A stretch of DNA of 64,000 bases from an uncultured Verrucomicrobiae bacterium. GTDB taxonomy: Bacteria; Verrucomicrobiota; Verrucomicrobiia; Limisphaerales; JAFGQR01. Below are positions 58,039 through 59,242 of the stretch, in pieces (positions within the stretch are counted from its first letter, which is position 1; the number at the start of each line of letters is the position of its first letter). The stretch covers positions 236,917-300,916 of the forward strand of contig CAWBHS010000049.1 in assembly GCA_963788655.1 (NCBI GenBank). Reading direction: 5' to 3'. The notes under the pieces were generated by a model, which saw nothing but the letters and a program-made list of their open reading frames with translations, did no database searches and was not told the origin of the DNA. The translations under genes and the position numbers were made by a program.

Positions 58039-58252
58039 ATGCGTTCATCGATGCCGAGCGAGATCGAATGCGGGCTGAGCGATGGCCTGGAGCACGTACT
58101 GCTTCGGATATTCGGACGGCCACGGTGACTTTGACTGTTCTGGCTTGACGAAGCTTTTCGGCGGGCCGTTTTGAGTTTGTGTTTTGCGGCTCCGCGTGGT
58201 TTCATCGGGGCTGGGTTGGCACGGAGATCGGTCAGACATGAAAAAGCATAAC
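58039..58252 (+). CDS. Cassette 9: very small membrane protein, probably frameshifted
   Basis: ATG after attC8; hydrophobic fragments; TAA in R''. Confidence 0.4.
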
Positions 58253-58366
58253 CAGTCGGTAGAGCGAAGGGCTGCCCCGCCTGGCAGCGAGAGCACTTGG
58301 TTCTTTGGATGTTCACTTCACCGTCAAGCGGGCGCTGCCGGCAGCCCTCGCTCACCTCGGCGTTAG
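58246..58366 (+). other. attC9; R' interrupted after GTTAG by a group II intron
   Basis: GCATAAC…gagcgaagggctgcc/ggcagccctcgctc…GTTAG|; the CC resumes at 59184. Confidence 0.88.
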
Positions 58367-59183
58367 TTGTGACATGAAGTCGCATTCATCACTGCTGAGC
58401 ATGGGCAACCTGACTCAGTCCTGCCTTTCGCGGCAGGTATTCCAGGGAAGCATGCGTTGGACGGGCGGCCGCAAGGCTACTGTCCAGGGTGTGAAGCCTT
58501 CCCGACAATGTAGCCAGCCTGGGAGCCTCAATCCGGGTGCGGCGCTAGAATTGGATGGTAGGGTCAACCCACGTGAACACTCGCAAGCATCGTCAGAGGA
58601 ACGAGCCATACGAGGCTGTTTTAAGGCTCCGGCCAAAAGAAGGCCAGCGGTCAAGTTCGGGCTGTCTAACGTAGCCCGACGCGAATGGCGCACCGCCGGT
58701 GTAGAGAGTGGACCTAACCCATCCTGTGGAGAATGCGGAACATGGAAAAGCTGCCAGTTCCCGCCTGGAGAGTATCCAGGCAAGCCGACCGCAAGGCAGG
58801 CCCAGGGGAGGCAGCATGAAGAGGATCGAACAAGCCAAGGCCGGTCGGTAATGGACCGGATATGCCCACGTCGATCTGGTGTCTCCTGGCAAGAAAATCA
58901 GCGGAACCCCTTCAAGCGAGAGAAGCATAGGACGAGCGACGCCCGTCGCTTGGTGCCTCTCGGTGCTGCGGCCCAAAGGAGCCGAGCGCGATATGGCCGC
59001 CGACCGGTATTGCCAAGTGGGATTGGGAAGGTCCATGACGCCTTTGGGTGTCACCGGCCTCCTGGTTACGCGGGTCCCCCGCATCCGGGGTGGCCTTGGA
59101 GAGGCTTGAGCCGTGATGAAGGGAAACTTTCAAGTCCGGTTCTTAGGGGGGCGTGGGCGGGTGACCGCCTACGCCTACCCGGT
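58367..59183 (+). mobile_element. ORF-less group II intron (IIB/chloroplast-like), 817 nt
   Basis: Domain V gagccgtgatgaagggaaactttcaagtccggttc (59108-59142, AGC triad); domain VI ending cctacccggt; 5' end TTGTGACATGAAG; EBS1 CTAACG (58666-58671) and EBS2 CGAGG (58611-58615) complement the 5' exon; no RT motifs. Confidence 0.9.
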
Positions 59184-59242
59184 CCCGTGCGTGCGAACGT
59201 CGCGGGCGAGTCGAACGCGCAACCACAACGAAAGGTCAACAC

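Follow-up and report, generated by a model that had tools for sequence, protein, structure and literature searches.

The 64,000-nt stretch of DNA analysed here, which we call the window (contig CAWBHS010000049.1 of assembly GCA_963788655.1 from an uncultured Verrucomicrobiae bacterium, positions 236,917 to 300,916, forward strand), carries a chromosomal integron, and the ninth attC recombination site of its cassette array is interrupted by an 817-nt group II intron without an open reading frame (ORF) for an intron-encoded protein. The intron, which shares the top strand and the direction of reading with the cassettes, splits the R' core of the site, and it is very probably a non-autonomous member of a lineage of the chloroplast-like CL1/IIB1 type that homes into attC R' cores in this orientation. 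On a broader scale it is likely, if less firmly so, that with CL1/IIB1 a second lineage of group II introns has independently specialised on attC. Its members would enter R' of the top strand by means of an exon-binding site 1 (EBS1) that mimics R'', homing through EBS2 having been dropped for a short pairing next to a hairpin, and, lying in sense, they would have their transcription driven by the integron promoter and would move between arrays at the 5' end of cassettes. Such a lineage would be widespread and would have shed its protein gene repeatedly.

Only two Rfam models were matched above the gathering cut-off in the whole window, and both are group II intron models, namely group-II-D1D4-7 (RF02012) at 58419-58544 of the plus strand with 63.2 bits (cut-off 34) and Intron_gpII (RF00029, domains V and VI) at 59106-59183 of the plus strand with 49.6 bits (cut-off 40). 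At the 5' end of the intron, UUGUGACAUGAAGUCGC can be aligned base by base with GUGCGACGUGAAGUCGC in a canonical intron of the Klebsiella plasmid pENVA (L002); at the 3' end, the counterpart of CCUACCCGGU in two plasmid introns is CCUACCCGAU/GAC. The exon flanks are ...CGTTAG before and CC... after the intron, and R' of the ninth attC is thereby split as GTTAG/CC. Removal of the intron yields GTTAGCC, to which the next R'' in the array, GGCTAAC, is reverse-complementary without mismatch; reading on unspliced into the intron gives GTTAGTT, with two mismatches to this R''. The initial annotation, made from the sequence alone, had proposed an ORF-less intron of 817 nt, this split of R' and the restored complementarity, and had named a search with both Rfam models as a check; the matches, the boundary alignments and the lack of any protein match (detailed below) bear it out in each respect. 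It had also noted that cassettes 5-9 obey a common rule, i.e., that R'' of each attC site is the reverse complement of R' of the preceding one, and this rule is exact from attC5 to attC10 and one base off for attC2 to attC4. The integrase crossover falls at G/TT of R'. The insertion point, 5 nt to the 3' side of the G in GTT, lies beyond it, so that by this established integron rule the intron forms the 5'-terminal part of the downstream cassette; the initial annotation had likewise expected it to travel at the 5' end of an excised cassette.

That the interrupted site is an attC site was examined with a covariance model (R1) built from nine attC sites of the window, attC9 being left out of the training. 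R1 finds the untrained attC9 over its full length (58246-58368, 74.9 bits, E 8e-19), in the range of the scores with which it re-finds its own training sites attC1 to attC8 (72.8-122.2 bits). Within the array, 14 of the 16 pairs of the attC L-box helix show compensatory changes. All ten attC sites and the intron are located on the plus strand, opposite to the integrase gene intI on the minus strand, and the sense orientation proposed at the outset is thus the one observed.

The intron reads the R' core through EBS1. The last six bases of the 5' exon, CGTTAG, serve as intron-binding site 1 (IBS1) and pair 6/6 with CUAACG in a hairpin loop of the intron, the pairing ending at the splice site. 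This loop aligns with the EBS1 loop of the pENVA intron, where UAGCUG complements that intron's own exon CAGCUA. Across 17 sequences of the family all seven pairs of the EBS1 stem change on both sides, 93.3% of the cells are paired, and the covariation score is 0.952 against 0.340 for shuffled alignments (none of 500 shuffles reached it), slid controls giving at most 0.138. The loop itself reads xxAACG in all 23 sequences, with AACC in one, and exon and loop change together: CGTTCG is faced by CGAACG in L058, CGTTAA by TTAACG in L021, CGTTAT by ATAACG in L078, GGTTA by TAACC in L079 and ACGTTA by TAACGT in L008. Counted over the 22 relatives for which both intron ends could be located, the exon pairs with EBS1 at 6/6 Watson-Crick positions in nine, at 6/6 with one G-U pair in four, at 5/5 of the exon bases in hand in one (L081_1) and at 5/6 in five; one further copy (L054) was mis-registered by the script and shows five base pairs by eye, and the pairing fails in two (L019, L025). 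The initial annotation had set CTAACG in a hairpin loop against CGTTAG and had made its proposal depend on EBS1 lying in the proper loop of domain I; the covariation of the stem, the covariation with the exons and the homology to the canonical loop of L002 all agree with it.

These relatives come from a scan of one genome per species, and every count of relatives given in this text is among the at least 114 matches listed. The scan pattern is wholly internal to the intron, extending from domain V (its 3' strand) as far as the GGU end, and the insertion site was thus not pre-selected. At least 114 stretches carry the 3' signature, giving 114 distinct 3' ends. For 42 of these at least 800 nt of upstream sequence were in hand, and with an nhmmer profile of the 5' end it was possible to place both ends in the 22 mentioned above; for 34 loci (L083-L116) flanks of 300 nt were available. 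All 22 start with U[UC]G[CU]G. In 20 of them the 5' exon has GTT inside an R'-like core, at position -5 in 13 copies and at -4 in seven, and the check for copies outside attC that the initial annotation had called for therefore did not go against it. One of the other two (L019) has a homologous attC arm in which GCT replaces GTT. The restored R' complements the next R'' also in L004 (GTTAG+CC and GGCTAAC) and in L055 (GTTAG+GT and ACCTAAC). Moreover, R1 gave 46 attC matches (E<=0.01) in the loci of 13 relatives, and all 46 are on the strand of the intron; among six weaker matches a single one (L057, E 0.37) is on the opposite strand. In L004, L007, L008, L021, L055 and L058 the R1 match, like that in the window, reaches 2-4 nt into the intron.

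The named hosts include Limisphaerales and other Verrucomicrobiota, Desulfobacterota-type 'delta' lineages, Chlorobiaceae, Pedobacter, Nitrospira, Gallionella, Exilibacterium and a Peregrinibacteria bin, and the relatives with both ends span at least six phyla. The closest relatives of the window intron and its attC types are verrucomicrobial. It would be conceivable that an ordinary homing IIB intron has landed at this place once, as an ectopic insertion, and that its match to CGTTAG is coincidental, since retrotransposition of group II introns to ectopic sites is known (PMC7923331) and the window holds a single copy. However, the same offset in the GTT core with covarying EBS1 in relatives from this many phyla, and the uniform strand of the attC matches, make such a coincidence extremely improbable.

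The ends of the intron, UUGUG...GU, do not match the group II consensus GUGYG...AY. The window intron and each of the 22 relatives with both ends begin with U and not with G, and their penultimate base is G and not A, a G that the search pattern required. These two positions interact with each other in other group II introns, and the pair of U and G may represent a covariation.

With regard to class, 18 of the 22 relatives are 2.2-2.3 kb in length and contain one long ORF in 17 cases and a split one in L078. The intron protein of L004 (494 aa) matches the group II reverse transcriptase/maturase family TIGR04416 with 344.5 bits and has the domains RVT_N, RVT_1 and GIIM and no endonuclease domain. 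Compared with proteins of solved structures it scores 541 bits with 6ME0 chain C, 133 with LtrA (ML) and 118 with a IIC reverse transcriptase. 6ME0 is the structure of Th.e.I3/T.el4h, a IIB1 intron with a CL1 reverse transcriptase (PMC8643678). Domain I of the window intron is recognised by the Rfam model that also recognises a canonical plasmid intron of the CL type, and the ribozyme measures about 590 nt without domain IV. Because of the AGC triad in domain V, the 6-nt EBS1 and the scores of the L004 protein, the intron belongs neither to class C nor to the IIC-attC introns, which is what the initial annotation had maintained.

The IIC-attC introns, e.g., S.ma.I2, are nevertheless comparable in that they are likewise specialised on attC, lack the endonuclease, have a short IBS1 beside a stem-loop and do without EBS2 (PMC7923331, PMC4424553, PMC8876359). 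Their insertions are found at R'' (TTGT/T) of the bottom strand and run antisense to the cassettes (PMC7923331, PMC4424553, PMC8876359), whereas the lineage described here inserts in the top strand at R' (after GTTRR) in sense. One could therefore think of an unusual IIC-attC intron that has landed on the other strand, the more so as the stem-loop just upstream and the apparently unused EBS2 are IIC-like traits (PMC7923331, PMC4424553) and as PMC7923331 cites one IIC intron inserted in the top strand of attC, in the same cassette orientation. That intron is of class C and not of the CL/IIB type, and IIC-attC introns have a CGC triad, an EBS1 of 3-4 bp and a small ribozyme (PMC7923331, PMC4424553, PMC8876359). 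Triad, EBS1 length, ribozyme size, the domain I model and the scores of the L004 protein, 541 bits with the Th.e.I3 protein and 118 with a IIC reverse transcriptase, all stand against this explanation, to which we give next to no credence.

The lineage is not wholly new, and in this respect the idea of a different lineage in the initial annotation, right in the distinction from IIC-attC, has to be qualified. UHB.I2, a IIB1 intron with a CL1 protein from an integron in a soda-lake metagenome, was published by Sonbol & Siam 2021 (PMC7923331). It resembles the window intron in being of the IIB type with an AGC triad, in its orientation along the cassettes and in its position directly after attC, and the ends are alike (5'-UUGCG..GU-3' in UHB.I2, 5'-UUGUG..GU-3' in the window). 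Its protein lacks the endonuclease like those of the protein-coding relatives, and an EBS3 bulge was found in neither. UHB.I2 encodes its protein and the window copy does not, the two being compared by description and not by sequence (PMC7923331). In the parts of PMC7923331 cited here this one full example is placed 'immediately after' attC, with poorly conserved flanking exons, a role of the hairpin being only speculated on; its text, to the same extent, states neither a split of R' at a fixed offset nor a reading of the R' core by EBS1. Th.e.I3 (T.el4h, 6ME0), the nearest to the L004 protein, and EcI5 have the same type of ribozyme (PMC8643678). They start with GUGYG and use homing sites of 20-35 bp that are read by EBS1, EBS2, EBS2a and EBS3 (PMC8643678), whereas the lineage of the window intron has U as first and G as penultimate base and shows no covariation of EBS2, EBS2a or EBS3 with the exons.

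A number of observations weigh against the reading of an attC-homing CL1/IIB1-type intron, and those from the survey and from the pairings are the following. L025 is a true exception, its intron being located 12 nt past the G of GTTAGC, and the R'/R'' rule is broken in L005. Four matches from Solirubrobacteraceae (L036, L046, L057, L070), which are a different lineage, start with GUGCG or CUGCG and are not at attC. The relatives were collected by a signature derived from the window intron, and copies from the same genome are not independent of each other. R1, which was trained on a single array and under-detects elsewhere, found nothing at several non-verrucomicrobial junctions. A score for hairpin formation based on the complementarity of the arms lies above the 95th percentile of CGTT controls for 12 of the 19 junctions that could be scored and below it for the other seven, the test being conservative because the controls were taken from the same attC-rich loci. 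Minimum-free-energy folding of the restored sites gave weak z-scores from -4.2 to +0.8, with GTT-AAC pairing in some of the sites only, and that insertion would depend on the hairpin is something we infer. For EBS3, no column of domain I covaries with the first base of the 3' exon, the best column lying in a domain II stem. For EBS2, a test in free register over 22 copies gave 5.09 for cognate and 5.34 for non-cognate combinations, and a test in fixed register over the same 22 copies gave 3.52 for cognate against 3.48, with 1630 of 5000 permutations reaching as high a value.

One alternative is a purely canonical IIB mode of targeting, in which EBS1 and EBS2 together read about 11 nt of the 3' arm of attC and the structure of the DNA plays no part. 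EBS2-IBS2 and EBS2a are hallmarks of IIB1 homing, and the opening of duplex DNA is held to require EBS2 and EBS2a (PMC8643678). The CGAGG that the initial annotation had proposed as EBS2 does pair 5/5 with CCTCG at exon positions -12 to -8, one unpaired G (-7) separating IBS2 from IBS1, which is exactly the canonical IIB1 geometry (PMC8643678), and attC2 and attC6 (CCTTG) could pair with it as well, using one G-U pair. However, a complete 5/5 pairing is reached by the window intron only, and the relatives, with cognate combinations no better than non-cognate ones, lend the proposal no support. L004, L055 and L058 keep the identical loop in spite of differing exons, L004 pairing poorly, and at the position of EBS2a an A faces C at -14 as a mismatch. 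The tandem insertions described below and the variety of L' arms also favour a short recognised sequence. We consider targeting by canonical pairing alone improbable, and we prefer the reading in which EBS1 is the one exon pairing with support from the relatives.

Under this preferred reading the intron RNA would reverse-splice into DNA after ...CGTTAG. The 6-nt loop of EBS1 would in effect be an RNA copy of the R'' box (xCUAAC+G) that pairs with C-GTTRR of R' and displaces R'' from it, EBS2 contributing nothing detectable. A reverse transcriptase/maturase would be supplied in trans by a protein-coding relative, because none is encoded in the window. On each strand a match of 6 bp is expected by chance about once in 4 kb, yet the copies are nearly always in attC. 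Since six base pairs are too few, the proteins lack the endonuclease and EBS2 and EBS2a appear to be unused, additional specificity has to come from elsewhere; most likely it would be provided by the single-stranded or hairpin form of attC, as for IIC introns, and/or by protein contacts. The proposal of the initial annotation that a IIB-like lineage targets attC by base pairing is thus upheld for EBS1, while base pairing alone would hardly suffice. The intron would ride at the 5' end of the downstream cassette, and, being in sense, it would be transcribed with the array and, given a maturase, could splice out and restore GTTAG-CC.

Tandem introns occur in two of the loci, L052 (minus strand, oriented position 724) and L077 (minus strand, 116). 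There the 3' end ...CCCGGU is directly followed by the 5' start UCGCGACACGAAGUCGC and UUGCAUCACGAAGUCGC, respectively, which would fit a re-insertion at an already occupied site that is recognised via the 5' exon only.

The ribozyme of the window intron is complete. It is 74.1% identical over its full length to the 820-nt ORF-less intron of L058, and the consensus fold of both comprises six domains with 210 pairs, of which 38 are compensatory. Domain V has the AGC triad, as the initial annotation had said, and is 35 nt long and not 34. A 35-nt domain V was found in 3 of 83 scorable sequences (82 relatives and the window), namely in the window and in two protein-coding copies of L029, whereas 79 have 34 nt according to the script and 80 if L058 is added, which was mis-measured by it and really has 34 nt. 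No protein gene was detected: Pfam gave nothing for the ORF 58305-59246 that runs through the intron nor for two antisense ORFs, and tblastn of the intron proteins of 18 relatives against the ORF-less introns gave no significant match, the window intron reaching E 0.008 over 14 aa at best. Any remnants of the protein gene in ORF-less copies are at best weak tblastn matches of this kind (E 0.004 for L021, 0.008 for the window). The 64-kb window shows no similarity to intron-encoded proteins at E<1e-3, and it contains no second copy of the intron. Between intron positions 570 and 710 blastn aligns the window intron with L058, but not with L004 and L055, which are protein-coding.

The ORF-less form is found in 4 of the 22 relatives, which are 820, 820, 848 and 907 nt long. 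The window intron and L058 (74% identity) have a short domain IV in common, and the ORF-less L021 is closest to the protein-coding L039 (81.7%), so that the protein gene has been lost more than once; as judged from these comparisons the ORF-less state is old and recurrent. Bacterial ORF-less group II introns form a category of the Zimmerly database, and the window copy shares with them a complete ribozyme, a short domain IV and a protein that is presumed to act in trans (Simon et al. 2008, as cited in PMC8919778).

The further points against the reading given above concern the activity of the window copy, and they lead to the alternative that the lineage is attC-specific as described but that this copy is a dead relic, which no longer splices or moves and merely separates attC9 from cassette 10. 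The extra U beside the catalytic helix of domain V, the absence of an intron protein gene and of a second copy within 64 kb, the in-frame stop in intI together with a fragmented second intI, by which the integron may be decaying, and the empty state of perfect targets in the same array can all be taken as signs of inertness. Unoccupied are attC2, attC6 and attC7, which end in CGTTAG (54061-54066, 57281-57286 and 57627-57632) and match EBS1 perfectly. On the other hand, all motifs are intact, i.e., the six domains, the AGC triad, the GAAA loop, the branch-point A and both boundaries, and the fold is conserved with the compensatory pairs to L058; the 35-nt domain V is also present in both L029 copies, which encode their protein, and a maturase could be encoded elsewhere in the genome. 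That the window copy is a relic is a serious possibility, although it seems to us somewhat less probable than not, and we continue to regard it as a non-autonomous intron that may still splice.

In a full-text literature search, the scope of which did not extend to subscription journals and the supplements of PMC7923331, we found no report of an ORF-less intron in attC and none of a fixed insertion point in R' or of covariation between EBS1 and R'. A review of 2015 assigns attC targeting to class C only (PMC4424553), and an integron review of 2022 mentions IIC-attC only (PMC8876359), in each case in the sections cited here. Targeting of R' throughout a family thus appears not to have been described before. 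The window element itself is a new ORF-less form of a barely described kind of intron, and the pattern across the family is of greater interest. The fixed point in R', the covariation of EBS1 with R' and the repeated ORF-less derivatives would together establish a convergent homing into attC in the IIB1 lineage. If this is true, the lineage provides a natural test case for a IIB intron that dispenses with EBS2 and EBS2a, and a hitch-hiker of this kind has to be expected at the 5' ends of cassettes in integron annotation, where split R' cores and 'non-coding' inserts of 0.8-2.3 kb would otherwise be misread as odd cassettes. As a sense element it could also leave the mRNA of the cassettes undamaged, whereas IIC-attC introns, lying antisense, interrupt cassette transcription (PMC8876359).

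As to the other members of the survey, the 20 ends that have at least 800 nt upstream and no 5' end by the profile consist of nine partial copies, seven that are cut by a contig end or only partly alignable (L013, L018, L042, L056, L059, L064, L071) and the four from Solirubrobacteraceae. The nine (L012, L014, L015, L020, L044, L050, L051, L062, L066) are homologous over the last 59-439 nt only and are for the most part probably 5'-truncated fragments, divergence being an alternative to truncation for L062 (Bacteroidota) and L066 (Chloroflexota). In the first seven of these nine the last 96-439 nt are present with more than 1 kb of upstream sequence in hand, and they look like 5'-truncated copies as incomplete reverse transcription would give. 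In L015 an intact attC (GTTCGCC) is located about 870 nt upstream of the 3' end of the fragment. Less than 600 nt before the 3' end of the intron were in hand for 34 of the 79 distinct ends of the fully fetched loci L003-L082, and in one metagenome-assembled genome of Geobacteraceae five contigs (L027, L034, L041, L047, L080) begin inside the intron; such short upstream ends suggest multi-copy elements that break assemblies. Short contigs of the lineage were found in bins of Peregrinibacteria (L054), Micrarchaeia (L052) and Thermoplasmatota (L075), L054 being an 848-nt ORF-less copy at an attC-like hairpin, and these candidate-phylum and archaeal bins could reflect the true host range or mis-binning. 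In a collection of 72,556 plasmids blastn hit 252 records, no one of which covered 80% of the intron; the matches (77-84%) are confined to domains V and VI of ordinary introns ending in GAU or GAC, and no close relative was among them.

The features of the array and of the intron are compiled in Table 1. Both halves of intI match NCBIfam TIGR02249 'integron integrase' (profile positions 8-141 with 112.7 bits and 144-313 with 222.2 bits), and the in-frame TAG between them may indicate a pseudogene, a sequencing error or a case of read-through. Adjoining intI, at 50553-51333, lie three direct repeats, the first of 171 nt with 89% identity to 52571-52741, the second of 69 nt with 71% identity to 51834-51902 and the third of 49 nt with 82% identity to 51553-51601, and this region looks like a decayed second copy of the integrase gene, judging by these identities.

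Table 1. Features of the integron and of the inserted intron (positions in the window)
Feature	Position	Strand	Basis or remark
intI, integron integrase gene	51445-52806	-	TIGR02249 on both halves, one in-frame TAG between them
Cassettes 1-8 with attC1-attC8	53366-58036	+	
attC1	53366-53493	+	R1 match; in R1 training set
attC2	53947-54072	+	R1 match; in R1 training set
attC3	54378-54503	+	R1 match; in R1 training set
attC4	54915-55040	+	R1 match; in R1 training set
attC5	55921-56047	+	R1 match; in R1 training set
attC6	57167-57292	+	R1 match; in R1 training set
attC7	57545-57638	+	R1 match; in R1 training set
attC8	57944-58036	+	R1 match; in R1 training set
attC9, 5' part	58246-58366	+	R'' GCATAAC 58246-58252, L''/L' arms, R' bases GTTAG 58362-58366
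Proposed IBS2 CCTCG	58355-58359	+	exon positions -12 to -8
IBS1 CGTTAG	58361-58366	+	last six exon bases
Cassette 10 (TT of R' to G of next R'; intron at 5' end)	58363-62316	+	inferred from G/TT crossover rule
ORF-less group II intron, 817 nt, 5'-UUGUG...GGU-3'	58367-59183	+	Rfam, boundary alignments, fold with L058
Domain I	58373-58744	+	consensus fold with L058; contains the Rfam D1D4-7 match
Proposed EBS2 CGAGG	58611-58615	+	in loop of hairpin 58603-58629; 5/5 pairing in window
EBS1 hairpin	58657-58679	+	EBS1 CUAACG 58666-58671 in loop; stem covariation, L002 loop homology
Domain II	58750-58815	+	consensus fold with L058
Domain III	58824-58876	+	consensus fold with L058
Domain IV, 229 nt, no protein gene	58878-59106	+	consensus fold with L058
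Domain V, 35 nt	59108-59142	+	Rfam alignment; AGC triad 59109-59111, GAAA loop, extra U 59114
Domain VI	59146-59180	+	Rfam alignment; bulged branch-point A 59177, unpaired in consensus fold
attC9, last two bases (CC) of split R' core	59184-59185	+	
ORF of cassette 10, 679 aa	59243-61282	+	PPC-domain match 20.9 bits, below Pfam cut-off 25.9
attC10, last of array	62193-62322	+	R'' GGCTAAC 62193-62199; R1 78.1 bits, in training set

Top-strand attC hairpins might lie on the lagging-strand template, but from the GC skew, which is weakly positive over the window, no direction of replication can be read. The intron-bearing cassette is unusually long, with about 3.1 kb after subtraction of the intron, and contains more ORFs in other frames (59243-61968). 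The terminal attC10 is without the usual spacer and CGTT before R' and ends in ...CTCAGTTCATC, and after it the direction of the genes turns to the minus strand.

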